Of a stretch of DNA of 64,000 nt, positions 630-64,000 are shown piece after piece (the stretch's first letter is position 1; every line of letters begins with the position of its first letter). Source of the DNA: Sphyrna mokarran (Eukaryota); NCBI GenBank assembly GCA_024679065.1, contig JAGIQG010000023.1:10106001-10170000 (forward strand), given 5' to 3'. The translations under genes and the position numbers were made by a program. The notes beneath the pieces are model-generated. The model saw nothing but the letters and a program-made list of their open reading frames with translations. It made no database searches and had not been told where the DNA came from.

Positions 630-718
630 TCTGGTTTATGTTGTACTCGGGAGACTGGGGGCCAATCTTGTGGCGTTTGCTATTTCTCTACTTTTGTACC
701 GGAGGCGAATTGACAAGG
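630..718 (+). CDS. Gene 0 transmembrane exon of an inhibitory-type Ig-superfamily receptor (5' exons lie upstream of the window)
   Basis: Acceptor ttttctgtgtcacag|630 and donor AAGG|gtgagt. 89 nt, phase 2 to 1. Encodes (S)LVYVVLGRLGANLVAFAISLLLYRRRIDK, a hydrophobic helix followed by a basic stop-transfer cluster. Confidence 0.85.
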
Positions 719-2398
719 GTGAGTTTCTGTTTCTCCAGAATCGTTTTGTTATATTTCAATAATTTTCTGAAGTATATAAAGAGATTCTAATTTGCTGCAA
801 TCAACAAAATCTCTGATTCTGGTACCCTGCACATTCTAATATAGTTGTGTTAAAGATGGCAGAATGTTGAAGTTGTTATGTTGCTCAGAAATAACAAATA
901 ACCCTCTGTGAACTCTGGAGGGAGTGAAACTCAACATGGGTTTAAAATGATAGAGACCATAAGACTATCAGAAATAAGAACAGGAATGGGCCATTCAGCC
1001 CATCTGCTCCGCCATTTAATAGGATCACGTCGATCTGTTTATGACTAAGGATGGAAATGTTTTGGCCGTGTATGCCCCAAGATTGGAAATTCCCATCCCA
1101 GGTTAATGACCTTTTAAATGGTCCACCAAATTCTCTGTCTTGCCCACCATAATTCGCAATGTGAACAGGATGGGAAAATTTCGCCCCAAGTCATTTCTTT
1201 GCTTAGCTATGTGAGGGAAATCTTGCAATGATCTTTCAGTATGATAGCCTAGTTCTCAAACTCCCAAAAATCTATTCATGTCTGACATGAATGTACTGAA
1301 TGGTGAAACATTCACAACTCTCTGCAACAGAGAATTCCAAAGATACAGAAACTTCTGTAACTTCATCTCAATAAATGGGTCCATACTGTGCCCTGGGACT
1401 GTGACAGATTTAAGGCAGAGAAAGATAGATTCATAAGTGGTGAAGAGATCATAGGTTTTGGAGAAAAGGTGGGAGAATGGGCTTGAGGAGTTTATCAGGC
1501 ATGATTGAATGATGGAGCAGACTCAATAGGCTGAATGCACTAATTCTGCTCCCATATCATATGCTCTTATGGTCTTATGGATTCATGTTCTAGATTAGAA
1601 CATAGAACATAGAAAAACTAAAGCACAAACAGGCCCTTCAGGCAAAAGTTATGCTGAGCATATCCCTACATTACTAGGACTAGTTTTTACCCTCAATCCT
1701 ATTAAATCCCATGTACTTATCCAGATGTCTTTTAAAAGACCCTAACAAATTTACCCCCACCACCAGTCAGAGGAAATATTTCGTCCACATCTGCCCTGTA
1801 AAGTCAATTTATTTTTTTTTTTAATGAGATCATCTCACATCCGGCTGAACAGCAGAGAATATTGGCTTCCTATGGTCCCATTGGCCCTTTTTTGCACAAT
1901 CCTTCAGAGGCCATGAGACTGGGCCATAACCAATAGAATGCAAGTGCACAAGCCTATTGGGAACCGATTTGGAGCGAAGGCATGCAGTCCCCAGAGCTGG
2001 AGGCTATTCTTAAAACACAGGGATTGTTAGGAGTGGATCTGCATCATTGTGATGTTAAACACTTCAATGTATAGAGTTCTTCTCGATTAATAAATCCCTT
2101 AGTTTGTGACTTACCATATAGAGTTGCCTTGAGTTATTACATCTCGTCCACTCAATCTTTCCTCATTTCCTTCTTGGGAATTGTGCAGTGAATAGAGAGC
2201 GGGTACGTCCTACCTACCTACAAACTGCACTTCAGGTGTAGCCTCACCAATTCCGTATTTTATTCACAAATCCCTCTGTAACAAAAGATAACAACCCATT
2301 TGGCTTTCTTTAAATGCTAATCAATGTACTCTGAGACATTCCAAGGTAGCGACCATTCCAATTAAAGCATTTTCAATGTTAACATTTTCATTTTTCAG

Positions 2399-2451
2399 AT
2401 ACAAATGACATAAGCCATGGAAGAGACAACGATAATCTTAATGACAATCAG
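2399..2451 (+). CDS. Gene 0 short cytoplasmic exon
   Basis: catttttcag|AT...AATCAG|gtgagg. 53 nt, phase 1 to 0, exactly bridging the TM exon and the terminal exon. Encodes DTNDISHGRDNDNLNDNQ. Confidence 0.8.
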
Positions 2452-3994
2452 GTGAGGAAATTAAGTATGAATTCTCTGACTAATGTCAGCGAATTTTCAA
2501 ACCTGGATGATGTAGAATTTACAGCACTGAAACAGGCCATTCAGGCCAACTGGTCCATGCTGGATTTTTTGCTCAACACAAGCCTCCTCCCATCCCTCTT
2601 TATCCAACCTGAACAGCATAAACTTCTATTCCTTTCACTCACATTTGTTTCTGTGGATTTGCCTTAAATGTATTGATGCTTTTTGACTGAACTACACCTT
2701 GGATTGGCTCCAATCTTTAATCTCATTGGATGAGCACAAAGGGAGACAGACTTTGGCTTTACGTTCAGAAGTGAGACCTCGTTAATTATTTCATCGCCAC
2801 TTTTGATTTGATGACATTTGTCAGTTTACGCTCTCGTATATTCTTGTAAAATCTCAAGTGTTCCTGCCAAAACAGAACAAAACTTAAGAATAAGAAAATG
2901 CTATCAAAAGCCAATGAGACCACCTACTCTGTGATGAGAGATTGGCCTTGCTGTAACTTTACCCATGTAGCCCCGAAGCTTTGGAATCCTCTCTGACTAA
3001 TTCATCACTTCATTATTTCTTTAAGGCATTCCGTAAAATATCTTTGCCTTAAACCTTTGGAAGATTTTGGTCACCTTCACTCATATCTTCTTCCTTGGTT
3101 TAGTTTCACTTTGTATCTGATGATGCTGCCATGGGTCTTGGGGCATTTCACAATGTTGAAGGCTCCAAATAAATGTACTTTCTTGTATTAAATATGGTCA
3201 TAGTTAATTCTAATTTAGGATCACTGCTGGTCCTACTGTGAGATAGTAATGTGAAAGATGCTGTCATTCTGAAGGGGTTTGCATCATTGAACGCAGTCCT
3301 GCTCCCCTGTGAATTAATTACAGCACAGTTCACTGGGAAGCTGCTGTGAAGATGTTTCAGTGCGGTTCTCACTATAACAAATGGGCAGCACACACAAGCT
3401 GATCAAAAGACAGAAGAAAGAACTCTGATAATCGTAAGCCATAACAGCAGGGATTGATGTTTGGATGGTGTAACCATGTCAGCACACCTCGTTAGTAATT
3501 AATCATTGTAATTAGACAAGCATATAGAGGCTATAACTGGTTTACTATATTCACCTGACATAAATGAAGTTATCAGAAGTATTCACTGTAATTGGATTTC
3601 AATGAGTTCAGAACAAATATGTCCTTGTGATTGGTGTATGAGGATTATACATAAGATACGCAAAGATAGAATGGTGCAAGCCATGTACCAGTACGCCACC
3701 TCGGGGGAGGCAGATCTCCTCGCTAAAGGGTGAATAAAGGCTGATTTAAAACCCCAAAAGTTTCATCTGGTCTGTTGAGGATGTGAGGTAAAATTTCACT
3801 AGATGGCAGCAAAATTCATTTCATATTCTGCCTTGGGAAATTAAAAAGTTAAGGCTAGATTCAGCAAGCTGGGCCTCCCTTTGATTAATGATCTGATTGA
3901 GATCTTCAAGATTCAGTTAGAGATAGCAAAGATGTTTCCACAGACAAGACCAAAAACATTGACCATAAATGGTGGACAGTTATTAATAACATGG

Positions 3995-4340
3995 AAGCAG
4001 TGGGTTAATGGTATTGTCATTGGACTAGGAATCCAGAGATCCAGGATCATCCTCTGATGACTTTGGTTCAAATCCCACCACAGCAGAGCTCAATGAAAAT
4101 CTGAAATTAAAAGTCAAATGATGACCACAAAACTATTGTTGATTGCTGTAAAAACCCATTTGGTTCATTGATGTCCTTTAGGGACATTTCCCTTAGGAAA
4201 TCTGCTGCCTATCTGTCTGGTCTACATACGACTCATAAATGCCCACTGAAATGGCCGAGCAAGCCACTCAGTTCAATTATGAATGGGCAACAAATGTTAG
4301 CCCAGCTAGCAATGACCATATTTCATGTGTGAATAAAAAA
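3995..4340 (+). mobile_element. tRNA-derived SINE (second shark family; antisense copies at ~12975-13310, ~18360-18800, ~32440-32770, ~36925-37230, ~45750-45920)
   Basis: B-box-like ggttcaaatccc. The body aaaacccatttggttcattgatgtcctttaggga...ggaaatctgc is shared with the other copies. Confidence 0.6.
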
Positions 4341-4668: not shown

Positions 4669-4944
4669 CAAATGGCAGTTGTGGAAGAGAACAGTCTGTA
4701 TGTCAGTGTAAAGTGCAATCGAGGGAACTCAGCAGAAACACACGGCAGGCAAACTGTCCACTTCACTAACAATGAGGAAGGAGTCACATATGCAGCAGTG
4801 CAGACTCAAAAGCCTGAAGAGTTAAGAGGTCGAGGCACTCAGTTAACAATGAGGATGTGTCAAGATTCAATGATAGCCCCTAAAGAACAGCACACAAGTT
4901 TTGATGAATGTGAAATGGCAATATATAGTAACATAACTCATTAG
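4669..4944 (+). CDS. Gene 0 terminal cytoplasmic exon with ITIM motifs
   Basis: ttttctatcttgcag|CAA, phase 0. Contains SLYVSV and VTYAAV (both match ITIM S/I/V/LxYxxI/V/L) and a C-terminal AIYSNI, then TAG. Confidence 0.88.
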   Translation, partial: QMAVVEENSLYVSVKCNRGNSAETHGRQTVHFTNNEEGVTYAAVQTQKPEELRGRGTQLTMRMCQDSMIAPKEQHTSFDECEMAIYSNITH

Positions 4945-7020: not shown

Positions 7021-7093
7021 TGCAGGGGGGTCTGCGGGTGATCCTCCTCCCCACCGGAGGACAAATCCATCCTCTTGGAGTGGACATGTGTCC

Positions 7094-10860: not shown

Positions 10861-11156
10861 GTGCAAAAAGGGAAATAACGGGAATTGAGGGAAGAGCGAT
10901 CATAATTGATTGTCACTATGGGGCAAAGTACTTGTCAAATGTGAAATATTGGTGTCGTAGCTGGACTCAGCAGTGTGATGTTGTAGCAGCAACAAATTGG
11001 CAAAATGGCAGAATATCAATCACAGATAACAAGACACAAGGAGTATCTATTGTCACTATGAAGGATTTTACTCAGGAGACAGAGGATGGTATAGCTGTTG
11101 AATTGAAGAACTTGGCCTCAATCCAATGTATAACATAAAACTACAAATACCTTTTG
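10861..11156 (+). pseudogene. Gene A (pseudogene) CD300/pIgR-like V-type Ig exon
   Basis: gtctcctcag|GT. Encodes GRAIIIDCHY...VKYWCRSWTQQC...RISITDNKTQG...TMKD, with a 1-nt deletion near 11070 and TGA replacing a Gly/Ala codon right after WYSC (~11099). Confidence 0.85.
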
Positions 11157-12719
11157 TAGTTTTTGTAAGTTTCTCAGTGATTGTCTTTATTGCTCTCAAC
11201 TGAAATGACAGATCAATGACTAGAATTATACATTATACATTGGGGGTGTGGCTCTCGTAGTGCAGTAGGCCGGAAGCCATCAGCGGAGGCCACTTTGCAG
11301 GCTTCTCGCTGGGTGCCATGGCCTCCTCACATCTCTGAGACTTTATTATTTTTTGACATAATGAGCTCCGCATCAGAAATCTCCATTTCCATATGATTAG
11401 CGAGCCTGGAAATAAATTCTCCATGCCCACTCGTATCTGCACCACGCCCCCACTCCTGGCCAGGTCTACTGCTGCATCCCATTGATAGGGAACAGGCAGC
11501 CCGATCGTGCTGGATGGAAGACACTCTCCTGACAGGTCAGGGATTAAGACGGGTGTCCCTTGGACAGTGCCAGTTTGATAATGCCAGCCTGATGCCCTGA
11601 CACAGCCAAAGGGGCAAATGGCACTGCCTGCTGGACATAGGGCAAAGGAGGGGACAGGGCGAGAGGGAGGTGGGGCGTATTGGAAGAAGGTCCTATTGGC
11701 CAACTGATTGGCAGTGGGGGCACCTGCTACTACTCTGCCTGATCGGTGGTGGAGGAAGGGAATGAGGGTTATTGGGATTGGCCATCAGGACAAGGAGGTT
11801 CAGTCTGCCGGAGAAAGGGGGTCTTGGGGATGGCCATTGGAAGTAGGGGGTGCTGGAATTGTCAGAGGGAGGTTGAGGCTGACGGGGTGCGGAGGGGGAA
11901 TGATCATCAGGATTGGGGGCTGGGTTGGGATTAACCAAAGGGTTCTGGGAACTCAGAGGGTGATGGGAGGGAGACATAGGGGCTGGTGCAGGAAGTCCAG
12001 GATCCAGTGTTAAGGGATGGGAGGATCAGAAGCCAGCAATGGTGGATTGCAGGGCTGACCAGCAATCAGGAAGCCAGCAATCTGGAGTTACAGTGGGACA
12101 TTGTGCACATGCCAATCAGTGCATGCACAGTGGCCCACTCAGTGCTCTGCTGCCAGCCTCTTGGGCAAAATAGGCCCCAGGCCCTGATTTTCAGAGTGAA
12201 TCATGCTAGAGCACATTTTATCTGTGACAAAACATGGCAGCTCTGAAATTCCAAGTCTGGCAGCTAGAGGGCAGAAGTCAGCAAAACTGACACAAACCCT
12301 CATGTGGTCTGTCCATATTTCTGAAAATGGATTACAAACATTCCCGAACTATAGAGAGGGAGGAACACTGGAAAATCGCAATCATCATGGATCTGGTTCT
12401 GAGGGAATGATTGGAGCTATGGGCTGACAAGTTCCTGGATTTTAATGGACTTCATTCCAGGGTCTTAGAAGAAGTGGCAAGTGAGGTAGTTGGTGCATTG
12501 GTTTTAATTCTCTGAAACGTTTGATGAAGGACCATTAGATTAGAAGATGGAGGGAGACAATCAAAGTGGGAAATTACAGGGCGATTAATTTATATCTGCT
12601 CTAGGGAATATATTAGAAGCTATTATTTAAAAAGCTACAGCTAAGTACTGAGATTGGCTCCAGGGAATCCAGCACTGTAAACATGATTAAATCATGTTCC
12701 GATCACATTGAACAATATT

Positions 12720-14385: not shown

Positions 14386-14708
14386 AATCCATCTCTGTTC
14401 CTGTGCTTAGACTTCTGTCACCACCAGATGCCTCATGTTGTGGGGGCTTAGTATCCGTCTCCTGTGAGTCAGTCCAGGGATCACTTCGCATTCAGTACAC
14501 ATGGTATGAAAAGACCCTGGCTGAAGATCCACAGATCTCTGTCACCAATAAACTGGATCTACATTGTCAATCCTTCACACAGCAACATCATCAATATTAC
14601 TGCATAGCCTCAAATAACGAGGGAGACAAATCCATGTGAAATGGTTAGTGTCAGTTATCAACAGATCAGAGAAAGACTGCAGTTATGTGACACAAATCAG
14701 TAGCATTG
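14386..14708 (+). pseudogene. Gene A C2-like Ig exon (frameshifted)
   Basis: tttcctacag|AA...ATTG|gtaagt. 323 nt versus 324 nt in intact copies. An insertion creates ATG TGA at ~14634-14639. Confidence 0.88.
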
Positions 14709-16078: not shown

Positions 16079-16151
16079 AAGCTGAATATACTTGTGAAGT
16101 TTTAACAACAAAATCAGTCGCGTCTTCAGGATCTACACCTGTCAGTGAAAG
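16079..16151 (+). pseudogene. Gene A stalk exon
   Basis: ctcgatag|AA...GAAAG|gtacag, phase 1 to 2. Encodes EAEYTCEVLTTKSVASSGSTPVSE. Paralog of 35013-35094. Confidence 0.8.
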
Positions 16152-17101: not shown

Positions 17102-17192
17102 TTTCATTATCTGGAATGTGATTCGCTAGGGGCTCTTTACCCTTTTGGTGATTTGTGTTACTTCGGTCACATGGTACACGAGAAAATCTCAG
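17102..17192 (+). pseudogene. Gene A TM exon with nonsense mutation
   Basis: FIIWNVIR*GLFTLLVICVTSVTWYTRKSQ. TGG in gene B is TAG here at 17127-17129. Confidence 0.88.
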
Positions 17193-19642: not shown

Positions 19643-20782
19643 CTTAATCACAGCTGCAAGAGGAACATTGGTTTTTCTGTGTGTAAAATAATGTTATGTG
19701 TCTTCACAAAGCATACAAATGCAATGGGTGATGAATGTGATCTCGAAACTGTCCCAAATTGTTGCCATTTCCTGAATTCTGTTCAAGACTGAAATGATGC
19801 ATTGTTCTCCCAGTCTCAATGAATTCAATGATTTTCTTTTCCAGTCACTCAATGAATTCAATTCTCACAGTTGGACCAAAGTGGGAAAATGAAGATTCCA
19901 GGATTCCATCTATATCAAAAGAATTGTGCATCCTGGTCAAATATTCAAACCTCATACAGCTTTGAACATTTCTTTTAACAGATCAATGTAATAAAATGTT
20001 TTTTCATTATTAAATGAAGTCTGAAAGATATGCTGGTTAGGGTGCATTGGCTCTGCTGAATTCTCACTCAAAGAACACAAACCAACACTGGAATGTGACA
20101 ATTGGGGGATTTTCACAGTAACTTCATTGCAGTTTTAATGTAAGCCAACTTGTGACACTAATGAAAAAAATAAAAACAAACAAACATGATTTTGACCGAA
20201 AATTTAGTGAAGGAATCAAAATCCATACAGTGGCTGTGACCTTCAGGTTGTATATCGACATCTGGACAATAATTGATCTGTTTGCTGATTAAATGTCTAC
20301 ATTTCTTGTTTCATATTCTTATCTGAATCTTTGTCAATTTAAAGATGAACAAATTCAGGAAGGAATTGGCAACACAATTTTTTCATTCACTGAATATCAG
20401 TCGCTCTAATGATACATTCCACATTTCTCAGGAATGAAACAATGTGTCTGTATAACACCAGAATGGGAGATTCCCTGGATTAGTCTAACTTCAGCTATTG
20501 GATAAATATTGGAATCAATTATTAAGGAGAGAATATCAGGGCCTTTGGAAAGTTATAATGTGATTAGGCAGAGTCAGATTGGGTTCATGAAGTGAAAATA
20601 ATTTCTGGCAAATTTACTAGAATTCTTGGAGTAGATATTAGCTAGAGTGGATAGAGGAGAACCAGTTGATGTTGTATATTTGGATTTTCAAACAGGCATT
20701 TGATAAGGTACCATACAAAAGGTTAATATGCAAGAACATATTGTTGTCAGGAATATTCTGGTGTGGTTAGAGGATTGACTAA

Positions 20783-27597: not shown

Positions 27598-27634
27598 ATG
27601 TGGATTCTTATTCTTTTCATCTTTTCTCTGCCTG
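27598..27634 (+). CDS. Gene B signal-peptide exon
   Basis: aaacgATG TGG ATT CTT...CTG CCT G|gtgagt. Encodes MWILILFIFSLP, phase 1, and joins the V exon as ...LPVSGALWAEK. Confidence 0.85.
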
Positions 27635-35012: not shown

Positions 35013-35094
35013 GAGCTGAATATACTTGTCAAGTTTTAACAAAATCACCCACAACTGCAACCACATCTTCAGGATCTACACCTGTCACTGAAAG
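35013..35094 (+). CDS. Gene B Ser/Thr-rich stalk exon
   Basis: catgtctcgatag|GA...GAAAG|gtacag. 82 nt, phase 1 to 2. Encodes GAEYTCQVLTKSPTTATTSSGSTPVTE. Confidence 0.85.
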
Positions 35095-35535: not shown

Positions 35536-36188
35536 ACTCCAGTGATGCCAGATTTCCTTAACCCTGTGTATTCTGGAGTATCGCTGATAGGAACATTGCA
35601 CTCACTGTCATCTTCTCCTTCTCAGTTGCCTGATTTAATACATTGTTCCCAAACTGAGCAGTTAAAGGCTGTCTGCTTCCTGCTGATTTCAAATTTCCTG
35701 TTAGGAGGTGCACCAGGGAATTGTGGAATGTTAAAAACAGAAAGTTCTGGAAAAAACTCAGCAAGTCTGGCAGCATCTGTGGAGAGAAGAGCAGAGTTAA
35801 CATTGAGTGGAATATGATTCTACTTTGGAACAGTGTGGGATGATATTATTGGAAGATTTTTACTCACCAAACAGATATCTCACCATTGTTATATTGCACC
35901 AGACAATGTTGCTGTCCCAGTTACCAGTCAATTCATAACATTTTTACTTCTAAGATTTTACTCAGCATTACAGATATACAGAGGAAATTTAATGAAAGCA
36001 GCTCCATTTGATCTTATCTAATGATCATGAAGTTAATCAGTGAAACTCTAGTTGATTGCTCCAGTTAACGTGCCTTGTCTGTGCGGGGCTGCTACAATAA
36101 GTCAGAGTGTAAAGAGAAGATTAATGTTTCAAGCATGAAGTTGCCTCATTCCATTCAAATCATTCTGTATTTCTTCCAGTTTGCTCAG

Positions 36189-36279
36189 TTTCATTATCTG
36201 GAATGTGATTCGCTGGGGGCTGTTTACCCTTTTGGTGATTTGTGCTATTTCGGTCACATGGTACACGAGAAAATCTCAG
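36189..36279 (+). CDS. Gene B TM exon with intramembrane Arg (activating type)
   Basis: ttgctcag|T...TCTCAG|gtgagg. 91 nt, phase 2 to 0. Encodes (S)FIIWNVIRWGLFTLLVICAISVTWYTRKSQ. Confidence 0.88.
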
Positions 36280-38147: not shown

Positions 38148-38177
38148 TCATTCAATGAATCCAAATTTCACAGTTAA
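38148..38177 (+). CDS. Gene B probable terminal exon (short tail SFNESKFHS*)
   Basis: Strong acceptor gattttcttttccag, phase 0, conserved in gene A (~19844). Alternative acceptors or read-through would also give a short tail. Confidence 0.5.
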   Translation, partial: SFNESKFHS

Positions 38178-45180: not shown

Positions 45181-45386
45181 CCAGGGAATCAGGACCAGGA
45201 GCTCACTGTTAACTGATTAAGTATGACAATAAACCAAATTGGCAGCAGCAATAAAACTCGTGGGAACTACTCAGAGAGTACAGGCGAATTGACAAAATAA
45301 GTTTGTGGACAGTTCATCACAGATAAAATTTAATTAAAAAGTAAGAAAGAATAATATTCATCACATGCTCTTCATCAATACTTTTC

Positions 45387-45661
45387 CTAATGAGATACGT
45401 TAGCATATATTGCCATTTTAGACTCATCAAAGTTTGTGTGTTTTCTTTGGGGGCTATCATTGAACCTTGACTCATCCTTGTGATTAACCCAGTGCCTCGA
45501 CCTGTTAACTCCTCAAGCTTTTGAACCTGCAGTGCTGCATTTGTGACTCCTTCCTCATTGTTAATGAAATGGACAGTTTGCTTGCCGTGTGTTTCTGCTG
45601 AGTTCCCTCGATTACGCTTTACATTGGCAGACACAATGTTGTCTTCTACAACTGCCAATTG
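45387..45661 (-). pseudogene. Decayed ITIM exon of gene C (inverted paralog of 4669-4944)
   Basis: Acceptor retained. ITIM Tyr codons read TCT (IVSANV) and AAT (VTNAAL). 275 nt versus 276 nt: a 1-nt deletion near 45441-45444 shifts the third motif (AIYANV) out of frame. Confidence 0.85.
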
Positions 45662-47224
45662 CTGCAATATAGAAAATAAAGATCCAGTTTATTTCCATTT
45701 AACTTGAATGGTGATTTGTGGAGAAATCGATTTCTAGATTATTGCAAATGACATTAGTGAACCAAATAGGTTTTTATTGCAATCGACAATAGTTTTATGA
45801 TCATCATTAGATCCTTAATTCCAGACTTTTATTGAGTTCTGCCTTGGTGGGATTTGAACCCAAGTCCCCAGAAGATGATTCTGCATCTCTAGATTACTAA
45901 TCCAATACCATTTCATCAGTACCTGTTATTAATGACGGTCCACTATTTATGATCACTGTTTTTGGTCTTGCCTGCAAGTGGAAATATCTTTGTTATCTCT
46001 ACCTGAATCTTGAAGATCTCAACCAGACCATTAATTAGACAAATCCAGCTTGCTGAATCTAACCTTCAATTTTTAATTTTCCAAGGCAGAATGAGAAAAG
46101 GAGTTTTGCTGCCATTCTGCGAAATTGTACCTCGCATCCTCAGCAGACCAGATGAAGCTTTCAGGATTTTAAATCAGCCTTTATTCACCCTGTTGTAAGG
46201 GAGTTTGCATCCCAGAAGGTGGCATACTGACACAGAGTACGCAGTATTATAACTTTGCATATGTTATATGTAATTCTCATACACCAATCACAAGTATACA
46301 TTCGTTCAGAAATCATTAATATCCAATTACAGACAATAGATCTGACTACATCATTTATGTCAGGTGAATATAATTAACCAGGTATACCCTCTGTATTTAA
46401 AGTTGGTTATGGTCCAGTCACGAGGCCCCTGAAGGATTGTGCAATAAAGGGGCAATGGGACCATACCAAGTCGATATTCTCTGCTGTTCAGCAGGATGTG
46501 AAATGATCTCATTGAAAATTTTTTAAAAATCTTAATTGAATTCATAGGGCAGATATGAGAAAATGTTTCCTCTGACTGGAGAATCTACAAGACAGAGTTC
46601 ATAAGACCACAAGAGCATATGATATAGGAGCAGAATTAGACTATTCAGCTAATTGAGTCTGCTCCACCATTCAATCATAGCTGATTAGTTTCTCAACCCC
46701 ATTCTCCCACCTTTTCCCAAAAATCTATGATCCCTTCACCACACATTAATCTATCTATCTCTGCCTTAAATCTGTCACAGTCCTCGAGCACAGTTTGGGC
46801 CCATTTACTGAGATTGGATGAGGATACAGAAGGTTCTGTATCTTTGGAATTCTCTGTTGCAGAGAGCTGTGAATGCTTCACCATTGAGTACATTCAAATT
46901 AGACATCAATAGATTTTTGGGAGTTTGAGGAACTAGGCTGTCATACTGAAAGATCACTACAAGATTTCTCTCACACAGCTAACCAAAGAAATGACTTGGG
47001 GCGGAACTTTCCCAGTCTGTCCTCATTGCGAATTGTAGCAGGCGAGACAGCGAATTTGGTGGACCATTTTAAAGGTCCGTTGACCTGGGATGGGAACTTC
47101 TAATCTTGGAGTGTACTTAACCAAACAAATCTCGATCTTGGACTTACCTAAATCTACATGATCCTATTGAATGGCAGGGAGACTCGATGGGCTGAATGGC
47201 CCACTCATGTTCCTGTGGTCTTGT

Positions 47225-48635
47225 AGAACATAGAACATTACAGCGCAGAACAGGCCCTTCGGCCTTCGATGTTGCGCCGACCAATTATGAAAAAAGCAAT
47301 GACCCTCCAAACTAAACCATTCCCTTCTCTTCCATAAACTTATCAACTAACCTCTTAAACGCACCAAACTTGGCGCATCTACAACTGCCGCAGGCAGGGC
47401 ATTCCACTCCCTAACCACCCTCTGGGTAAAGAACCTACGTCTGATATCCGTCCTATAACTATCACCCCTTACTTTAAAGCTGTGTCCCCTCGTGCTAGCT
47501 TTCTCCATCCTAGGAAAAAGGCTATCACTGTCCACCCTATCTAAACCTCTAATCATCTTATATGTTTCGATAAGGTCCCCTCTTAGCCGCCTCCTTTCTA
47601 ACGAAAACAACCTCAAATCCCTCAGCCTCTCTTCATAAGACCTGCCCTCCATACCAGGCAACATCCTGGTAAACCTCCTCTGTACCCTCTCCAATGCCTC
47701 CACATCTTTCTTATAATGTGGGGACCAGAACTGCACACAATACTCCAAGTGCGGCCGCACTAGAGTTTTGTACAGTTGCAACATGACGTTGCGGCTCCGA
47801 AATTCAATCCCCCTACCAATAAAAGCTAAGACTCCATATGCCTTCTTAACAACCTTATCGACTTGACTGCCTACTTTCAGGGATCTATGCACAAATACAC
47901 CAAGATCCCTCTGTTCATCAACACTATTAAGAATCCTACCATTAGCCCTATACTCTACACATTTATTATTCCTGCCATAGTGCATTACCTCACACTTTTC
48001 CACATTAAACTCCATTTGCCACCTCTCGGCCCAGCTCTGCAACTTGTCCAAGTCTCTCTGCAAACTATAACACCCCTCTTCACTATCTACCACTCCACCG
48101 ACTTTAGTGTCATCTGCAAATTTACTAATCCATCCTTCAATACCCTCATCCAGATCATTTATAAAAATTACAAACAGCAGGGGCCCAAAACAGATCCCTG
48201 AGGTACACCACTTGTAACCGAACTCCACGATGAATATCTCCCATCAACCACCACCCTCTGTCTTCTATCTGCTAGCCAATTCCTAATCCAATTAGCTAAA
48301 TCACCCTCAATCCCATACATCTGCATTTTCTGCAGAAGCCTTCCATGGGCCACCTTATCGAACGCCTTACTAAAGTCCATATATACCACATCAACTGCCT
48401 TACCCCCATCCACCTCTTTGGTCACTTTTTCAAAAAACTCAATAAGGTTAGTAAGGCACGACCTACCCTTCACAAAACCATGCTGACTATCCCCAATCAA
48501 TTCATTTCTCTCTAAATAACTATAAATCCTATCCCTAATAATTCTCTCCAATACTTTGCCCACAACAGAAGTGAGACTCACTGGCCTATAATTCCCTGGA
48601 AAGTCTCTCTTCCCCTTCTTGAACAATGGGACCAC
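47225..48635 (-). mobile_element. Young 5'-truncated CR1 LINE (RT domain)
   Basis: PGNYRPVSLTSVVGK...SQHGFVKGRSCLTNL...YMDFSKAFDKV...GVPQGSVLGP...ISKFADDTK, with one frameshift at ~48190 and an (agaacat)n tail. Absent from the paralogous gene 0 intron (~965). Confidence 0.95.
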
Positions 48636-48869: not shown

Positions 48870-48892
48870 CCTTGTCGATTTGCCTCTGATAC
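48870..48892 (-). pseudogene. Remnant of the gene C TM exon (last ~23 nt only, donor GT>AT)
   Basis: Reverse strand gtatcagaggcaaatcgacaagg|ATgaatttc aligns to gene 0 gtaccggaggcgaattgacaagg|GTgagtttc, and the following intron is homologous. The upstream hydrophobic part is replaced by LINE-like sequence. Confidence 0.8.
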
Positions 48893-50658: not shown

Positions 50659-50737
50659 CTTTTAGCAAGTTAGGAGTTTGGAGTTGAGGAATGTGTTGGC
50701 GATACTGTTAAAGCTTCACAAGAATTTTCAGGTCCAA
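50659..50737 (-). CDS. Gene C stalk exon with in-frame stop (CDS ends at 50670)
   Basis: ttttcttgtttcag|TT...AAAAG|gtatgt. 79 nt, phase 1 to 2 like the A/B stalks. Encodes VGPENSCEALTVSPTHSSTPNS*LAK, with TAA at 50672-50670. Confidence 0.8.
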
Positions 50738-53086: not shown

Positions 53087-53410
53087 CAACACTGTTGATC
53101 TGTGTCACATAACTGCAATTCGCCCCTGATCTGTTGAACAGTGACACTGTAACCATTTCACTGGATTTGTCTCCCTGGTTATTTGAGGCTATGCAGTAAT
53201 ATTCATGACGTTGCTGTGTGAAGGATTGACAATGTAGATCCAGTTTATTGGTGTCAGAGATCTTTGAATCTTCAGGCAGGGTCTTCTCATACCATGTATA
53301 CTGAATGGGAAGTGATCCCTGGACAGACTCACAGGAGACGGACACTGAGCCCCCAGAACATGAGGCATTTGGTGGTGATAAATATCTAAGTTCAGGAACA
53401 GATACGGGTT
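53087..53410 (-). CDS. Gene C C2-like Ig exon (last unit)
   Basis: cttttgcccacag|AA...GTTG|gtaagt. 324 nt, phase 1-1, open. Confidence 0.9.
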
Positions 53411-54686
53411 CTGTGGGCAAAAGACAACCATGAATGGATTTTCATAGTAGCTTCATTGCAGTGCTCATGTCAGCCTACTTGTGATAACAAGTAAAAAAAA
53501 ACTTTAAGTTTCAACTTCAATTGTTTAAGCTTTAGCATGACCAAAAAGTTAATTTTTTTCATATTATCAATATTTCAACACCTCATCCAGGATGTGAGGA
53601 AGAAAGGAAAGTGTTAGAGACAGAGAGAGAGAGAGATGGCAGTGGAAGCATGGCTGAATGCAGGTAGTATCTATTGATTGCTCTCATGGACAGCAGATAT
53701 TCATGATAGTAAATTAGTTAGTGACAAGCATTGGAGTGTGACCTGTGATGTTTGCTGAGATAATGCAGACATAAATATCTTATATAAAAACTAATCTTGA
53801 CCCAAATTCTCCGATATCAAACGAGGTGCCTCCATTGCCAGTTAGAGTAGGGAATTTGGCGCTCAGCCAAATCTTCATTCACAGCAGCAGGACTGGAGGA
53901 TTCCAGCTGCAGATAATGTTGCTGAACTCCAGCCATTGTTTGTATTTGTATTTAAAGTTCAACAATTAGTACCATTAACATTAAGGTGTGAATACTGTTT
54001 TAAATCTAGGGTGAGGTTTTATGGCCTCGAATGAGCGAGACTGGAAAATCCCGCCCAAAGTCAACAGACATTTCTGTTGTCGGCCCCACACCCACTCCAA
54101 TACCATAGCGGGCAAGGCAGTAAATTTTCAAAGTATCATCCAAAGGACATGAGCTGGGAGATAGAAGCTATCAGCTGGCAGCAACTGAAACAGTTAATTG
54201 AGGAAACTGGCTTGAACTGCTCTCTTTGAGCTGAGTCCCTTTGTTTTTAAACATGTAAAATCGCACATTCTCACTGCAACCAACACTGGACACTGACTTC
54301 ACCAGAGTGTGGAGGTTTAATGAGGAGAACGAATTTATTACAGGAGAAGAAATGAGCTGTTAGTGAGTATCTGGCAAGTATTCGGGACGTGGTGAAGACC
54401 AAATGTCCAGGTATTGGGAGCATGGAATGGGTCCTTACCAACTTGTTAATCAGGAAAGTGTGGTCCAAGGAGCAATAAATCTAACCTCATCTCTCTGGAT
54501 CATTACTCTGAGCCTCTGAATTACAATTCCTCCAACATAATCATTATTCTAACTGCGCTCTAGCTGCCAGAATTGGCACTCCATGGATCCTCCGGATATT
54601 GAAGCTGTCAATGTCTCCTCTCAGATAAAGCACCAATCAGACATTTCAGTTGAGAGTAATAAAGATAATCACTGAGAACAATTTAC

Positions 54687-54995
54687 CATCAGATATTTGT
54701 AGCTTTACAGGAAATATTGAAAGTAGCCCGGACTTAGAAATACCACAGCTGTACCACCCTGCATCTCCTGGGCGAAGATCCTCCATAGTAACAACAAATA
54801 ATCCTTGTGTCTTGTTATCTGTGATCGACATTCTCCCTCGCCGTCCATCTGGATCATTTGATTTTACCAAAACAGAGCACTGACGACTCCAATATTTCAC
54901 ATGTGACTGGGACAATTTGTCATAGTGACAATCGATAGTGATCACTCTTCCCAAAACTCCTGTTACATTATTTTTTGCCCACAATGCATTTGGAG
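54687..54995 (-). CDS. Gene C V-type Ig exon
   Basis: gtcttttcag|CT...GATG|gtaaat. 309 nt, phase 1-1, open. ITIDCHY...KYWSRQC...DAGWYSC. Confidence 0.9.
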
Positions 54996-55657
54996 CTGAA
55001 AAGACAACACATCAAATATTGAACTAAAAATAATTGTTTAATACAAACAGATATATTTTTAATACGATACACTACTGTGCTCAGAGAAATCTGTGCAATA
55101 CATCTGATAATGCTATTGAATAAATTCTTGTTTGAGATCATTGGGCTCATTGAATGAGTGCTCCCCACAGATTGATAATTAAACAACCATATTGAGGTTA
55201 TATACTGAACTCTACATAAAGCAAGACCTCAAGAGGCTCCATTAATCTTTTAGTCCTGGTTCGGGCATGTGATGTTTACTACAGGTGTGCATTATTGTTT
55301 ATTATCATTTGCATAATGCAACACAAGCATAATCCACCTCCAGGAATCATTGCATTCTCAAACAGTAATTGTCAGGCAGCAGATTGTCTGCTCATGATCA
55401 CATTGCTCTTTGAGGCAGCTTATTGCTCATAAATTGGTGCTGAGCTTACTACATCACAACAATTGATCTAAATCAGTTCCAGCTTTGACCAGAACTGACG
55501 TTAAAACTGTCCTGAAGTTCTGAAAAGTGAAAACTAAATGTAATTCCGTTTTTTCCAAAATTGCTTCGAATGACCAATCGAATTAAACTCATCAGCAACT
55601 CAGGCAGACGGTAATTTAAAATTTAGTTGAATTTCTGAAGCTGAAAGAGATATTTAC

Positions 55658-55972
55658 CACTGTTGCTGAATTGTGTCACATAACTGCAATCATTCTCTGA
55701 AATGTGGATCACTGCCACTGTAACTATTTCACTGGATTTGTTTCCCTGGTTATTTGAGGCTGTGCAGTAATATTGATGATGTTGCTGTGTGAAGGATTGA
55801 CAATGTAGATCCAGTTTATTGGTGTCAGAAATCTTTGAATCATCAGATGGGGTCTTTTCATACCATGTGTACTGAATGGGAAGTGATCCCTGGACAGACT
55901 CACAGGAGATGGACACTGAGCCCCAGGCATTTGGTGGTGATAGAAATCTAAGTTCAGGAACAGATACGGGTT
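55658..55972 (-). CDS. Gene C C2-like Ig exon (9-nt in-frame deletion)
   Basis: tttccacag|AA...AGTG|gtaaat. 315 nt, open. Confidence 0.88.
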
Positions 55973-57148
55973 CTGTGGAAATAAAAATCATTAACAGATT
56001 TTCACACTAACTTCATTGCAGTGCTAACGTAAATCTCCTTGTGACACAAGCTAAAAAAAGCTTAAGTTTAAATTTTAAAAGTTTGAATTTGAAAATGACC
56101 AAAAAATTAAACAGTTTCGTATTCTCAATAATTCTATACCTCATCCAGGGTGTGAGGAGGAAGTGAAAGTGATAGAGAGAGAGAGGGAGATGGCAGTGGG
56201 AGCTTAGCCAAATGCAGGTAGTTTCTATTTATTGCTGTCATGAACAGCATATATACATGATAACAAATTAGTTACTAACAAGCATTGGAGTGTGAACTGA
56301 GATAAACTGTAGATGTTTGCTGAGGTAACAAAGACTTAAATACGTTTCTAAAAATCTAATCTTGACCTGAATTCACTGATATCCAGTGATCTTCCTCGCT
56401 GCGAGTTGGAATACAGAATTTGGCACTCAGCCAAATCTGGACTATAGCGGGTCTGGATAATTCCAGCTGCAGACAAGTTTAGTGAATTCCAGCCATTGTT
56501 TGTATTAGTATTTAACAATCAACAGTCAGTTGCATTCAACATTTAAATGTGAGTACTGTTTCAAGTCTAATGCAGGGTTTTATGGTGTCAAACGACTAAG
56601 ATTGGAAAATCCTATCCCAGGTCAGCAGACATTTGTGAGCAAGGCAGTAAAATTCTGATGTAAGTAACATCCAAAGGACATCTGCTGGCAGCAACTGAAA
56701 TAGTTAATTGGGAAAGCTGGCTTGAACTGCTCTTTTTGTTCTGAATCCCTTTGTTTTTGAACTCAGCCCCTCGGACTTTACCCGAGTGTGGAGGTTTAAT
56801 GAGCTGAAGGAATTTACTACAGGAGAAGAAGTGAGCTGTTGGTGGGTATCTGGTCAAGGTCTATTCTCCAGGCATCAGTAGCATGGGTGAGGTCTTTGCC
56901 AACTTGTTTATCAGAAGAGCATGGTCCAAGGTACAATAAATATGACCCCATCTCTCTGGATCATAACTCTGAGCCTCTGAATTCCAATTCCTCCAACATA
57001 ATCATTGTTCTAACTGCCCTCTAGCTGCCAGGCTCTGCACTGCTGTGGAGCCTCCAGACGTCAGAGCTGTCAATGTCTCCTTCAAGATAAAGCACCGATC
57101 AGTCATTTCACTTGAGAGTAATAAAGATAATTACTGAAAACAATTTAC

Positions 57149-57457
57149 CGTCAGATATTTGTAGCTTTACGGAAAATATTGAAAGTAGGCTGGGTTTATC
57201 AATACCACAGGTGTACCACCCTGCATCTCCTCGGCGAAGACCCTCCATAGTAACAGCAAATAATCCTTGTGCCTTGTTATCTGTGATCGACATTCTCCCT
57301 CGCCGTCCATCTGGGTCGTCAGATTTTACCAAAACAGAGCACTGACGACTCCAATATTTCACATGTGACTGGGATAATTTCTCATAGTGACAATCGATAG
57401 TGATCGCTCTTCCCAAAACTCCTGTTACATTATTTTTTGCCCACAATGCACTGGGAG
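57149..57457 (-). CDS. Gene C V-type Ig exon
   Basis: gtctattcag|CT...GACG|gtaaat. 309 nt, open. Confidence 0.9.
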
Positions 57458-58115
57458 CTGAATAGACAAACCATCAAAAAAATGAACTGAAATCATTCTT
57501 TAATACCAACAGATAGACTTTGATAGAATTTGTCACTGTGTTTTGCAATACGTCTTGTAATGTAATTGGATGATTCTTTGTTTGAGATGGTTAGGACCAT
57601 TGAACATATTCTCCCCATGGATTGCTAATAAGACAACCATATTGAGATTGTATTCTAAACCCTTCATAAAGCAAAACTTGAGAGTTTTCATTAATCTTTT
57701 AGTCCTGGTTGGGATCTGTTGGTTTCACCATTGGCGTGTGGTTACTGTTTATTTTCATTTTGTACAGTACAAACACAGTTCCTTTACATCCGACTCCTGG
57801 AGTTATTCAATTTTAAAATAGCAATTGTCAGACAGTAGATTCTCTGCTCATGATCACATTGCTCTTTATAACCAGGTTACTGGTTATAAATTGGCGCTGT
57901 GCATTCTACATCACAAGAATGACCGTGAATCAGTTCCAGCATTGACACGAACGGACTTTAAAACTGTCCTGAAGTTGTGAAAAGTGAAAAATAAATGTTA
58001 TTCTATTTTTATTGAACTTAATTTGAACGACCAATTGAACTAAACCTGTGAGCAATTCTGACAGACATTAATTTAAAAATTAGTTGAATTTTTTGAAGCT
58101 TAAAATGATATTTAC

Positions 58116-58439
58116 CAATGTTGTTGATTTGTGTTAAATAACTGCAATCATTCTCTGAAACGTGGATCACTGACACAGTAACCATTTCACTGGATTTGTT
58201 TCCCTGGTTATTTGAGGCTATGCAGTAATATTGATGATATTGCTGTGTGAAGGATTGACAATGTAGATCCAGTTTATTGGTGTCAGAGATCATTGAATCT
58301 TCGGATGGAGTCTTTTCATACCATGTATACTGAATGGGAAGTGATCCCTGGACAGACTCACAGGAGACGGACACTGAGCCCCCAGAACATGAGGCATTTG
58401 GTGGAGATAGAAATTTAAGCTCTGGAAAAGACACGGGTT
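58116..58439 (-). CDS. Gene C C2-like Ig exon
   Basis: ttttctcacag|AA...ATTG|gtaaat. 324 nt, open. Confidence 0.9.
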
Positions 58440-59700
58440 CTGTGAGAAAAAAGACAATCATTAACGGATTTTCACATAAACTTTGTTGCAGTGTGAACAT
58501 AAGCCGACATTAACTGGTGACACACATCAAATAAATGGGTTAAGTTTCAATTTTAAAACTTTAAAGTTTAGAATGAACAAAAAATTATATAATTTCATAT
58601 TACCAGTATTTAGACATCTCACCCAGGATGTGAGGAGGAAAGGGACATTTTAGAGAGAGAGGGACAAATGGCAGTGGGAGCTTGGCTGAAATCAGGTAGT
58701 ATCTAGTGATTGCTCTCACGGATAGCAGATAGTCATGATAGCAGATTAGTTACTAACAAGCATTGGAGTGTGAACTGAGATAGACATTGGATGTTTGCCA
58801 AGATTACGGGAGATTTAAATATCTTTCATAAAATCCCATCCTGACTTGAATTTTCCAATATTGTGCGATCCATCAGTTGGAATTGGGAATTTGGCACTCA
58901 GCCAAATCTCTGCTCACACCAACGGGACTGAATGATTTCAGCTGCAGTAGATTTTGGTGAATTCCCACCATTGTTTGCATTTGTATTTCACATTCAAAAG
59001 TAAGTACTATTCAACATTTACGTGTGACTACTGTTTCAAGTCTACAGCGAGGTTTTATGGCCTCAAATGAGCGAGACTGGAAAATACCACCCAAGATCAA
59101 TAGACATTTCCACTGTCTGCCCCACACCTGCTTCAGTACCACGACGGGCAAGGCAGTAAAATTCCAACCTAAGTATCATCCAGAAGACATGCATTGGGAG
59201 ATAAAACCTATCAACTGGTAGCAACTAAAATAGTTAATTGGGAAACTGGCTTGCACTGCTCTTTTTGTACTGAGACCCTTTGGTTTTGAACTCAGCACTT
59301 CTCACTTCAACCAAGTGTGGAAGTTTAATGAGCTGAAGGAATTTACTACAGGGAAAGAAGTGAGCTGTTGGTGAGTATCTGGTGAATATTCGGGAAGTGA
59401 TCAAGGTCTAGTCTCCAGGCAACGGGTGCATGAGTGGGATCCTTGCCAACTTTTTGTCAGGTACAGCAGAGTCCAAGGTGAGATAATTCTGACACCCATC
59501 TCTCTCAATCATTACTCTTGAGCCTCTGAATTACAATTCCTCCAACATAATCATTGTTCTAAATGCCCTCTAGCTGCCAGACTCTGCACTGCTGCAGAGC
59601 CTCCAGACATCGGAGGAGCTGTCAATACTTCCTCTCAGATAAAGCACCGATCAGTCATTTCACTTGAGACTAATAAAGATAATCACTGAGAACAATTTAC

Positions 59701-60009
59701 CTTCAGATATTTGTAGCTTTACAGAAAATATTGAAAGTAGGCCGAGTTTATCAATACCACAGCTGTACCATCCTGCATCTTCTGGGCGAAGATCCTCCAT
59801 AGTAACAACAAATAATCCTTGTGTCTTGTTATCTGTGATCGACATTCTCCCTCGCCGTCCATCTGGATCATCTGACTTTACCAAAACAGAGCACTGACGA
59901 CTCCAATATTTCACATGTGACTGGGACAATTTCTCATAGTGACAATCGATAGTGATCGCTCTTCCCAAAACTCCTGTTACATTATTTTTTGCCCACAATG
60001 CACTGGGAA
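59701..60009 (-). CDS. Gene C V-type Ig exon
   Basis: gtccattcag|TT...GAAG|gtaaat. 309 nt, open. Confidence 0.9.
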
Positions 60010-60666
60010 CTGAATGGACAAACCATCAAAAAAATGAACTGAAATCATTCTTTAATACCAACAGATAGACTTTGACAGAATTTGTCACTGTGTTTTGCAA
60101 TACATCTTGTAATGTAATTGAATGATTCTTTGTTTGAGATGGTTGGGACCATTGAACATATTCTCCCCACGGATTGCTAATTAGACAACCATATTGACAT
60201 TGTATTCTAAACCCTTTATAAACAAAACCTTGAGAGTTTCCATTAATGTTTTAGTCCGGGTTGGGATCTGCTGGTTTCACCATTGGTGTGTGGTTACTGC
60301 TTATTTTCATTTTGTACAGTACAAACACAGTTCCTTTACATCCGACTCCTGGAGTTATTCAATTTTAAAATAGCAATTGTCAGACAGTAGATTCTCTGCT
60401 CATGATCACATTGCTCTTTATAACCAGGTTACTGGTTATAACTTGGCGCTGTGCATTCTGCATCACAAGAATGACCGTGAATCAATTCCAGCATTGACAT
60501 GAACAGACTTTAAAACTGTCCTGAAGTTGCAAAAACTGAAACATAAATGTTATTCTATTTTTATTGAACTTAATTGAACGACCAATTGAACTAAACCTGT
60601 GAGCAATTCTGACAGACATTAATTTAAAAATTAGTTGAATTTTTTGAAGCTTAAAATGATATTTAC

Positions 60667-60990
60667 CAATGTTGTTGATTTGTGTTGAATAACTGCAATC
60701 ATTCTCTGAAATGTGGATCACTGACACAGTAACCATTTCACTGGATTTGTTTCCCTGGTTATTTGAGGCTGTGCAGTAATATTGATGATGTTGCTGTGTG
60801 AAGGATTGACAATGTAGATCCAGTTTATTGGTGTCAGAGATCATTGAATCTTCAGATGGAGTCTTTTCATACCATGTGTACTGAATGGGAAGTGATCCCT
60901 GGACAGACTCACAGGAGACGGACACTAGGCCCCCAGAACATGAGGCATTTGGTGGAGATAGAAATTTAAGCTCTGGAACAGACACGGGTT
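60667..60990 (-). CDS. Gene C C2-like Ig exon
   Basis: ttttctcacag|AA...ATTG|gtaaat. 324 nt, open. Confidence 0.9.
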
Positions 60991-62260
60991 CTGTGAGAAA
61001 AAAGACAATCATTAACGGATTTTCACATAAACTTTGTTGCAGTGTGAACATAAGCCGACATTAACTGGTGACACACATTAAATAAATGGGTTAAGTTTCA
61101 ATTTTAAAACTTTAAAGTTTAGAATGAACAAAAAATTATATAATTTCATATTACCAGTATTTAGACATCTCACCCATGATGTGAGGAGGAAAGGGACATT
61201 TTAGAGAGAGAGGGACAAATGGCAGCGGGATCTTGGCTGAATTCAGGTAATATCTAGTGATTGCTCTCACGGATAGCAGATAGTCATGATAGCAGATTAG
61301 TTACTAACAAGCATTGGAGTGTGAACTAAGATAGACATTGGATGTTTGCCGAGATTACGGGAGATTTAAATATCTTTCATAAAATCCAATCCTGACTTGA
61401 ATTTTCCAATATTGTGCGATCCATCTCCACCATCAGTTGGAATTGGGAATTTGGCGCTCAGCCAAATCTCTGCTCACACCAACGGGACTGGATGATTCCA
61501 GCTGCAGTAGATTTTGGTGAATTCCCACCATTGTTTGCATTTGTATTTCACATTCAAACGTAAGTACCATTCAACATTTATGTGTGAGTACTGTTTCAAG
61601 TCTACAGCGAGGTTTTATGGCCTCAAATGAGCGAGACTGGAAAATACCACCCAAGATCAATAGACATTTCCACTGTCTGCCCCACACCTGCTTCAATAGC
61701 ACGACGGGCAAGGCAGTAAAATTCCAACCTAAGTATCATCCAGAAGACATGCATTGGGAGATAAAATCTATCAACTGGTAGCAACTAAAATAGTTAATTG
61801 GGAAACTGGCTTGCACTGCTCTTTTTGTACTGAGACCCTTTGGTTTTGAACTCAGCACTTCTCACTTCAACCAAGTGTGGAAGTTTAATGAGCTGAAGGA
61901 ATTTACTACAGGGAAAGAAGTGAGCTGTTGGTGAGTATCTGGTGAATATTCAGGAAGTGATCAAGGTCTAGTCTCCAGGCAACGGGTGCATGAGTGGGAT
62001 CCTTGCCAACTTTTTGTCAAGGACAGCAGAGTCCAAGGTGAGATAATTCTGACACCCATCTCTCTCGATCATTGCTCTTGAGCCTCTGAATTACAATTCT
62101 TCCAACATAATCATTGTTCTAAATGCCTTCTAGCTGCCGGACTCTGCACTGCTGCAGAGCCTCCAGACATCAGAGGAGCTGTCAATACTTCCTCTCAGAT
62201 AAAGCACCGATCAGTCATTTCACTTGAGACTAATAAAGATAATCACTGAGAACAATTTAC

Positions 62261-62569
62261 CTTCAGATATTTGTAGCTTTACAGAAAATATTGAAAGTAG
62301 GCCGAGTTTATCAATACCACAGCTGTACCATCCTGCATCTTCTGGGCGAAGATCCTCCATAGTAACAACAAATAATCCTTGTGTTTTGTTATCTGAGATT
62401 GACATTCTCCCTCGCCGTCCATCTGGATCGTCTGATTTTACCAAAACAGAGCACTGGCGACTCCAATATTTCACATGTGACTGGGACAATTTGTCATAGT
62501 GACAATCAATAGTGATCGCTCTTCCCAAAGCTCCTGTTACATTATTTTTTGCCCACAATGCTATTGGAG
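62261..62569 (-). CDS. Gene C V-type Ig exon
   Basis: catcttttag|CT...GAAG|gtaaat. 309 nt, open. Confidence 0.9.
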
Positions 62570-63202
62570 CTAAAAAGATGGCAAGTCAAAAGTTGAACTG
62601 AAAATAATCGTTTAATACAAACAGATATGTTTCAACAGGATTTGATACCGTGCTCAGAGAAATCTCTGCGATATATTTTCTAATGCAATTGAATACTTTC
62701 TTGTTTGAGATCATTGGGCTCATTGAGTACGTGCTCCCCACAGATTTATAATTAGGTAACCATATTGAGATTGTATACTAAGCCCTTTATAAAGCAGGAC
62801 ATTAATAGATTACATAATCTTTTAGTTGTGTTCACCATAGGATTATGGCTATTGGTATTTCCATTTTGTACAATGAAAGCACAGTTCTGTCCCTTCCTGC
62901 TAATGAAATTATAAAATTTTCATACAGCAATTGTCAAACAGAAGATTGTCTGCTCATGATCACATTAATCTTTGAGGGAGCTTATTGCTCATAGATTGGT
63001 GCTGAGCTTCCTACATCACAACAATGGCCGTGAATCAGTTCCAGCATTGACTGGAACGGAATTTAAGACTGTCCTGATGTTATGAAAAGTGAAAAATAAA
63101 TGCAATTCTATTTTAGTAAAGTTGCTTTGAACGACCAATAAATTTAAATGACATTAATTTAAAAATTAGTTGATTTTTTTTTAATTTTAATGTGATATTT
63201 AC

Positions 63203-63526
63203 CAATGTTGCTGACTTGTGTTAAATAACTGCAATCATTCTCCGAAATGTAGATCACTGACACTATAACCATTTCACTGGATTTGTCTCCCCGGTTATTT
63301 GAGGCTGTGCAGTAATATTGATGATGTCGCTGTGTGAAGGATTGACAATGTAGATCCAGTTTATTGCTGTCAGAGATCTTTGAATCTTCAGACGAGGTCT
63401 TTTTATACCATGTGTACTGAATGGGAAGTGATCCCTGGACAGACTCACAGGAGACGGACACTGAGCCCCCAGAACATGAGGCATTTGGTGCTGATAGAAA
63501 TTCAAGTTCAGGGGCTGACACGGGTT
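63203..63526 (-). CDS. Gene C C2-like Ig exon (gene continues beyond the window end)
   Basis: tttttcccacag|AA...ATTG|gtaaat. 324 nt, open. The upstream intron repeats the array pattern up to 64000. Confidence 0.9.
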
Positions 63527-64000
63527 CTGTGGGAAAAAGACAATCGTTAACGGATTTTCTCAATAATTTCATTGCAGTGTTTATGTGACACTAAGTAAAA
63601 AAAGCTTTAACTTTAAACTTTAAATGATTAATCTTTAGAATGACCAAAATATTAATTGGTTTCATATTACCAGTACTTCTACACTTCATCCAGGGTGTGA
63701 GGAGGAAGGGGAAGTGTTAGCGAGATATGGCAGTGGGCAATTGTCCGAAAGCAGATCTATTGATTGCTCTCATGTACAGCACATATTCATGATGATAGAT
63801 TAGTTAGTGACAAGCATTGGAGTGTGATCTGAGACAGACTGTGTATGTAGTGGAGATTTAAACATCTTTCCTAAAATCGATTGAATCTTGAGCTAAAAAG
63901 TCTGACATTGAATGATCCGCCCCCACTGCCAGTTAGAATAGGGAATTTGGCACTCAGGCAAATCTCCATTCACAGCAGCGGGACTGGATAATTCCAGCTG

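Follow-up and report, generated by a model that had tools for sequence, protein, structure and literature searches.

A slice of an MDIR gene cluster in Sphyrna mokarran with an ITIM-bearing gene, an activating-type gene and a candidate secreted immunoglobulin array

Introduction

The clearnose skate's MDIRs (modular domain immune-type receptors) are described in an earlier account as multigene activating and inhibitory receptors akin to CD300, TREM, FCAR and pIgR (PMC3031540), and the paired design of this family in cartilaginous fish is already known. In this study, we analysed 64,000 nucleotides (nt) of Sphyrna mokarran (assembly GCA_024679065.1, contig JAGIQG010000023.1, positions 10,106,001-10,170,000, forward strand; the whole stretch is termed the window), in which four genes were modelled from splice sites and homologue matches: gene 0, gene A and gene B on the plus strand and gene C on the minus strand. 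With slightly better than even confidence, we read the window as a slice of an MDIR cluster composed of gene 0 with immunoreceptor tyrosine-based inhibitory motifs (ITIMs), the pseudogene A, the activating-type gene B and gene C as a likely secreted decoy; the exon architecture, the lesions and motifs, and the assignment to the family are the observed part of this reading.

The skate sequences retrieved, MDIR2 (ABC86796.1), MDIR3 (ABC86797.1) and MDIR5 (ABC86800.1), alternate CD300/pIgR-type variable (V) with constant-type (C) immunoglobulin (Ig) domains and continue with a stalk and one of two classes of transmembrane (TM) segment and tail, as do the genes of the window. They are membrane proteins with two to five Ig domains, whereas gene C has at least nine and no anchor. 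MDIR5 is said to have been listed by the MDIR authors as devoid of signalling motifs. The closest relatives are RefSeq models of Mustelus asterias with 75-93% identity, of which P0001 corresponds to gene 0, P0003, P0044 and P0136 to gene C, and P0013 to gene A and the 3' part of gene B.

Gene-encoded soluble members are already known in other families. According to PMC3031540, LILRA3 and carp SITR are Ig ectodomains with a gene of their own and no TM segment, and the SITR V domain is related to CD300 and MDIR; putative secreted FcR-like cDNAs of Xenopus are described in another report (PMC2413239). Within the window, gene C likewise is a separate gene with an intact ectodomain and no TM segment. 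LILRA3 is, however, of another Ig lineage, and SITR consists of two domains, C followed by V, in contrast to the long V-C array of gene C. Unlike both, gene C openly shows its descent from an ITIM gene, the remnants of which have stayed where they were. The comparison with LILRA3 drawn by the initial annotation of this DNA thus holds for the logic only, given that the origin of gene C is an inhibitory gene and that its V domains are of the CD300/pIgR type. In a literature collection lacking most subscription journals and the founding MDIR paper, no account of a soluble MDIR from sharks was found.

Results

The window genes are almost certainly members of the MDIR family, as judged from sequence comparison. 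With the V exon of gene B as query, 51 proteins were obtained, 49 from sharks and rays and two from eels, and a profile built from 12 of them gave 166 matches, the best 120 of which were considered and included skate MDIR2, MDIR3 and MDIR5. In two profile searches, neither MDIR1 nor MDIR4 appeared among the matches listed (best 120 of 166 and best 120 of 134). Genes B and C align with MDIR2, MDIR3 and MDIR5 over V and C domains with 52-57% identity (E 1e-73 to 1e-157), the alignment of gene B with MDIR5 continuing across the stalk and through the TM segment of that protein, while TM segment and tail of gene 0 align at 28-33% with MDIR3 (33%, E 2e-11) and MDIR2 (E 2e-6). The V exons match the V-set of Pfam as well as the solved structures of pIgR and CD300 (E 6e-19 for CLM-1 and 7e-17 for domain 1 of trout pIgR), and the C exon is best matched by FCRL5 (E 6e-40, summed over stretches). 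In a V-domain tree as suggested by the initial annotation (75 rows and 108 columns, drawn from the window and 26 selected proteins), window and MDIR V rows fell into one group of 61 rows with a support of 84/95, which is drawn open and holds two long eel rows. Therefore, the assignment is carried by the identity data, namely 52-59% between window V domains and MDIR versus 45-49% to the best bony-vertebrate row. As in MDIR, the number of Ig domains varies, from two in gene B to at least nine in gene C, and ITIM forms and charged-TM forms occur together in a multigene family. Orthology to pIgR or CD300 was rejected as improbable because the domain plan differs: the CD300 ectodomain is a single V domain and that of pIgR consists of V domains only, whereas the window genes have V-C units. 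It had been proposed before that these genes form a paired-receptor cluster of cartilaginous fish with birth-and-death evolution, and our data support this for a family that is already named and published; database names such as pIgR-like, FCRL5-like, CMRF35-like and titin-like conceal one family.

Comparison of the window with itself revealed three duplicated parts. The block 696-5058, which covers the 3' part of gene 0, recurs inverted at 48892-45272 with 74-87% DNA identity; the block 14221-24902 recurs at 33242-41561 with 79-87% identity; and a tandem unit of 2.5 kb extends from 53083 up to the window end. The window edges truncate gene 0, whose ectodomain lies outside, and gene C, whose leader and 5' exons lie outside, so that the receptor set is not complete as had been claimed.

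The part of the gene C ectodomain covered here (53087..63526, minus strand, continuing past the window) comprises five C exons (C1 63526-63203, C2 60990-60667, C3 58439-58116, C4 55972-55658, C5 53410-53087) and four V exons (V1 62569-62261, V2 60009-59701, V3 57457-57149, V4 54995-54687). All nine exons (2,847 nt) are open and flanked by AG and GT, with 18 intact splice sites, and the sole indel is an in-frame deletion of 9 nt. Its nearest relatives are the Mustelus model P0003, with 87% identity over 948 residues, and the multi-unit ITIM membrane receptors P0044 and P0136. While the minus-strand orientation and the gene-0-type tail remnant (74-87% DNA identity to gene 0) were recognized correctly at the outset, the ectodomain is not of the A/B type, as its V exons form a third clade that is neither A- nor B-type. 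Pairwise dN/dS values (nonsynonymous to synonymous substitution rates) among the repeats range from 0.16 to 0.93. V2 is a mosaic (59701-60009, minus strand) with a V3-like 5' end and its last 124 nt identical to V1, which marks an unequal crossover by which the array has recently gained one unit.

The cysteines of the array were also recorded. CD300/pIgR-type V domains have a second (C-C') disulfide; the gene B V domain has four cysteines, and each of the four gene C V domains has three, likewise the Mustelus counterparts. C1-C3 contain five, so that an internal C domain and the following V domain each hold a spare cysteine that might form an inter-domain disulfide; the one in C4 was removed by the 9-nt deletion. 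Among homologues, a C domain with extra cysteine precedes an odd-cysteine V domain in 29 of 55 junctions compared to 8 of 51 otherwise, counted over rows that are not independent of each other.

Downstream of the array, gene C has lost its anchor. In the stalk exon (50659..50737, minus strand), an in-frame TAA (50672-50670) precedes the donor by 11 nt, at a site where Mustelus P0044 and P0136, which have an uncharged TM segment and two ITIMs, encode lysine. Of the TM exon, only the last 23 nt remain (48870..48892, minus strand), with a donor changed from GT to AT. Relative to gene 0, a 1.6-kb deletion took the first tail exon, and a 1.4-kb long interspersed nuclear element (LINE) with reverse-transcriptase sequence (47213..48635, minus strand), absent from gene 0, sits in between. 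The last-exon remnant (45334..45661, minus strand) keeps its acceptor and an ATTAAA signal; its two ITIM tyrosines are replaced by serine and asparagine, the third tyrosine motif is out of frame, and its dN/dS against gene 0 is 1.4. Together, the stop codon and the deleted TM exon suggest that the product is soluble. That the LINE insertion destroyed the TM exon was rejected: the deletion runs from a LINE-like intron into the exon, and the large LINE lies downstream. This LINE copy retains open reverse-transcriptase pieces of 298 and 162 codons.

When codon changes in the tail were polarised on three Mustelus proteins, four of 47 codons had changed on the gene C lineage, two of them being the ITIM tyrosines. 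The presence of both in-frame ITIM tyrosines among so few changes has a simulated p of 0.005-0.012 (four to six changes, post hoc) and hints at disarming before release.

Four sequencing runs of related organisms were searched for transcripts. The joint between C5 and stalk was present in two of them (X1, X2), and in one (X2, the RNA nature of which is a guess) a contig has stalk and last exon connected with GT-AG ends, the differences being 3 in 77 for the stalk and 15 in 106 for the last exon. The latter joint was absent from the joints listed for the other three runs, in which 422 further joints were unlisted and contigs drop variants. If used by gene C, it places the stop 11 nt from the last junction with the last exon out of frame. 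Stops within 50-55 nt of the last junction usually escape nonsense-mediated decay, so that the gene C transcript would escape as well.

Gene 0 is represented by its TM exon (630..718), first cytoplasmic exon (2399..2451) and last exon (4669..4944), all on the plus strand, and its TM segment and tail are most similar to P0001 (77%). The long ITIM-bearing tail seen at first inspection was confirmed, with SLYVSV and VTYAAV in ITIM consensus and a terminal AIYSNI, the terminal tyrosine motif of the family. Within 4810-4944 (plus strand) of the last exon, the ancestral frame is left after the second ITIM and regained at the terminal motif; the third ITIM of four-tyrosine homologues is missing, the middle stretch being frame-shifted relative to them, and gene C differs by one base in this region.

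Gene B is an open frame of 297 amino acids on the plus strand with leader (27598..27634, in agreement with homologue N-termini), CD300/pIgR-type V exon (30231..30551), C-type Ig exon (33412..33735), stalk (35013..35094, in agreement with P0013), TM exon (36180..36279) and short tail exon (38148..38177; nine codons and stop). A terminal exon near 41075 was rejected, as P0013 matches the tail exon at 38148 instead. The TM arginine, noted at the outset, lies within NVIRW and thus in an NxxR motif at the outer TM end, which together with the short tail characterizes FcR-gamma-coupled receptors of the LILRA, NKp46, GPVI and XFL type. The tail of about 14 residues is short as announced, with a sole tyrosine at the membrane edge in place of none. 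In transfections (PMC2413239), the NxxR motif gave Xenopus receptors FcR-gamma association. By its sequence, gene B is probably an activating receptor. While its C and TM exons are 88% and 84% identical to Arg-type P0013, its V exon shares 78% identity with the N-terminal V of inhibitory-type P0001 and falls into one clade with this domain and the corresponding V domains of P0003 and P0136 (support 97/91). This suggests that gene B is a mosaic in which a V domain of the inhibitory lineage sits on an activating base; the predicted first V of genes 0 and C would then be of the same type.

Gene A (plus strand) has a frameshifted V exon (10861..11164), a C exon with +1 and -2 indels and a stop (14386..14708), a stalk exon (16079..16151), a TM exon with TGG changed to TAG after the arginine (17102..17192) and a short tail exon of 15 codons and stop (19845..19892). 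No leader or additional Ig exons were found within 5058-10790. The gene is disabled as first described, and yet it is not a full copy of gene B: only the C-stalk-TM-tail block is shared (79-87%), whereas the V exons are 67% alike and belong to separate clades. The tail exon is shorter in intact B (nine codons; 38148-38195) than in dead A (15 codons; 19845-19892), and a degenerate minisatellite of 30-66 bp follows the TM exon in both genes (17528-17708 and 36638-36923).

Across 135 homologues, 54 combine ITIMs with an uncharged TM segment, 40 have an Arg-Trp TM segment, 38 of these without ITIM-like motifs, and three carry ITIMs with a charged core; eight have other TM segments, three of which look like Arg-Trp variants on inspection, and in 30 models a TM segment is missing. 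The number of Ig domains ranges from one to 12, and 7 of the 54 ITIM-type membrane forms have 8-12. Hence, tandem V-C arrays are ordinary in membrane forms, so that the gene C array would predate anchor loss, and multimerisation as an addition special to the soluble form, as initially proposed, was rejected. The skate model P0110, named TRIM69-like, starts with an MDIR C-V-C-TM part; it probably represents two fused neighbouring genes and is a possible synteny marker.

Discussion

According to the explanation favoured here, gene 0 would recruit SHP-type phosphatases via its ITIMs, while gene B would pair with FcR-gamma via its NxxR arginine and signal through this adaptor with its immunoreceptor tyrosine-based activation motif. 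The V exon of gene B would have come from the inhibitory lineage, in which case genes 0 and B would share a ligand. The gene C stalk exon would splice to the old last exon, the stop would evade nonsense-mediated decay and the product would be secreted as a chain with nine or more Ig domains, binding the shared ligand with high avidity and dampening genes 0 and B. As a guess from the resemblance to CD300/pIgR and FCRL5, the ligand might be a repetitive surface ligand such as a lipid or polymeric Ig. From its sequence, we lean towards gene C encoding a working secreted protein. A more far-reaching scenario, in which a secreted MDIR with at least nine Ig domains arose from a stepwise disarmed inhibitory receptor (ITIMs hit, then the anchor lost, the array selected and growing) and gene 0 drifts to a dual receptor with arginine and ITIMs, appears unlikely.

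It is possible, albeit doubtful, that gene C has become a pseudogene and that its Ig exons look intact owing to recent loss or to conversion from working paralogues. The stop codon, the lost donor and the deletions of the TM segment and of an exon are what decay would leave, the neighbouring gene A is dead, and database models without TM segment are weak evidence for soluble forms, many being clearly partial or split: P0003 ends in an internal-type C domain and P0044, the next accession number, begins without leader, so that both are probably halves of one membrane gene. By contrast, the Ig exons with their 18 splice sites hold no disabling lesion, while at least four lie in the stalk-TM-tail part, and the probability that two to three random secondary lesions all fell into the dead 418 nt is 0.025-0.002. 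The youngest duplication, with introns 2.2% and 3.7% apart, has a coding dN/dS of 0.25-0.28 (Fisher p 0.005-0.02), the last-exon acceptor and polyadenylation signal are retained, and the stalk-to-last-exon joint exists in one relative's contig. Several points weigh against a functional secreted gene C. The lesions were counted post hoc, with large deletions and point changes pooled and with repair by conversion from intact paralogues left out of account. The dS of the young duplicate (0.05-0.065) exceeds its intron divergence (0.022-0.037), which gives an intron-based ratio of about 0.5-0.6; the V2 mosaic assignment used in this test was made after inspection; C2 versus C3 alone has a dN/dS of 0.73 and some old repeat pairs reach 0.8-0.9. 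Exon dS of the old repeats is mostly 0.11-0.18 compared to intron distances of 0.17-0.21, and exons more alike than introns hint at gene conversion; conversion from intact paralogues could mimic intact, constrained Ig exons. The X2 contig comes from another species, retains the first ITIM tyrosine and may reflect exon skipping in an intact gene. It also argues against disarming before release; this tyrosine may have been lost after the anchor. Finally, secretion rests on genomic DNA of the species and contigs of relatives, with the leader outside the window.

The split into inhibitory and activating forms postulated by the initial annotation applies to ITIM-tailed gene 0 and gene B with its TM arginine, but it is not clean. 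The gene 0 TM segment carries an arginine and an asparagine where Mustelus P0001 and P0044 have valine and isoleucine, the arginine lacking the asparagine of an NxxR context. We therefore tentatively allow for gene 0 being a dual receptor with TM arginine and ITIMs, or a decaying gene, which would leave the window without a clean inhibitory partner. These two replacements are among six differences from Mustelus in 30 TM residues, a charged core occurs in 3 of 57 ITIM-bearing homologues outside the Arg-Trp class, and eight of 47 tail codons (one codon unpolarised) changed on the gene 0 lineage compared to four on that of the dead gene C tail; TM and tail changes thus fit a plain conserved inhibitory receptor poorly. 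On the other hand, gene 0 keeps all three tyrosine motifs, all splice sites and a first tail exon with 18 of 18 residues as in P0001, its frame regains the terminal motif, and its best 19 TM residues have the same hydropathy as those of gene B (2.03). The faster tail change with tyrosine motifs kept fits diversification toward a dual receptor as well as early decay. We consider it quite improbable that the arginine of gene B lies at the membrane edge without any function in adaptor binding and that the genes are Ig-binding or adhesion receptors and not on/off pairs. The best solved-structure matches (pIgR for V, FCRL5 for C) and the likewise Arg-Trp TM segment of MDIR5, reportedly a protein devoid of signalling motifs, would suit this alternative. 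An asparagine three residues before the arginine occurs in only 5 of 52 Arg-type TM segments (among 184 proteins), which counts against adaptor pairing through NxxR. However, Arg-Trp TM segments with short tails and uncharged TM segments with ITIM tails segregate almost perfectly in sharks and rays, and gene B carries the full NxxR motif that has been linked to FcR-gamma (PMC2413239).

The cluster itself adds annotation and not a concept. If gene C is indeed a working secreted MDIR, it would be a dated and readable record of an inhibitory receptor turning secreted and multivalent, and a handy soluble reagent toward the ligand of the family. In the far-reaching scenario above, sharks would, independently of LILRA3 and SITR, have converted a brake receptor into a plasma decoy or opsonin of high avidity. 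Furthermore, the mosaic V exon of gene B singles out genes 0, B and C as candidates for a shared ligand.

Other features of the window

Between genes 0 and A, an intronless match to ribosomal protein L39 (7118-7240, plus strand; Pfam PF00832, E 9e-11) adjoins a 36-37 bp repeat (6892-7017) and is probably a processed pseudogene. LINE fragments of one kind are scattered at 47213-48635, 31450-32180, 5477-6140 and 22813-23800. Antisense to a gene C intron, 50399-50530 (plus strand) has a 73% match to the C-terminal 44 residues of P0001 as modelled in Mustelus, which is probably an annotation artefact in that model.

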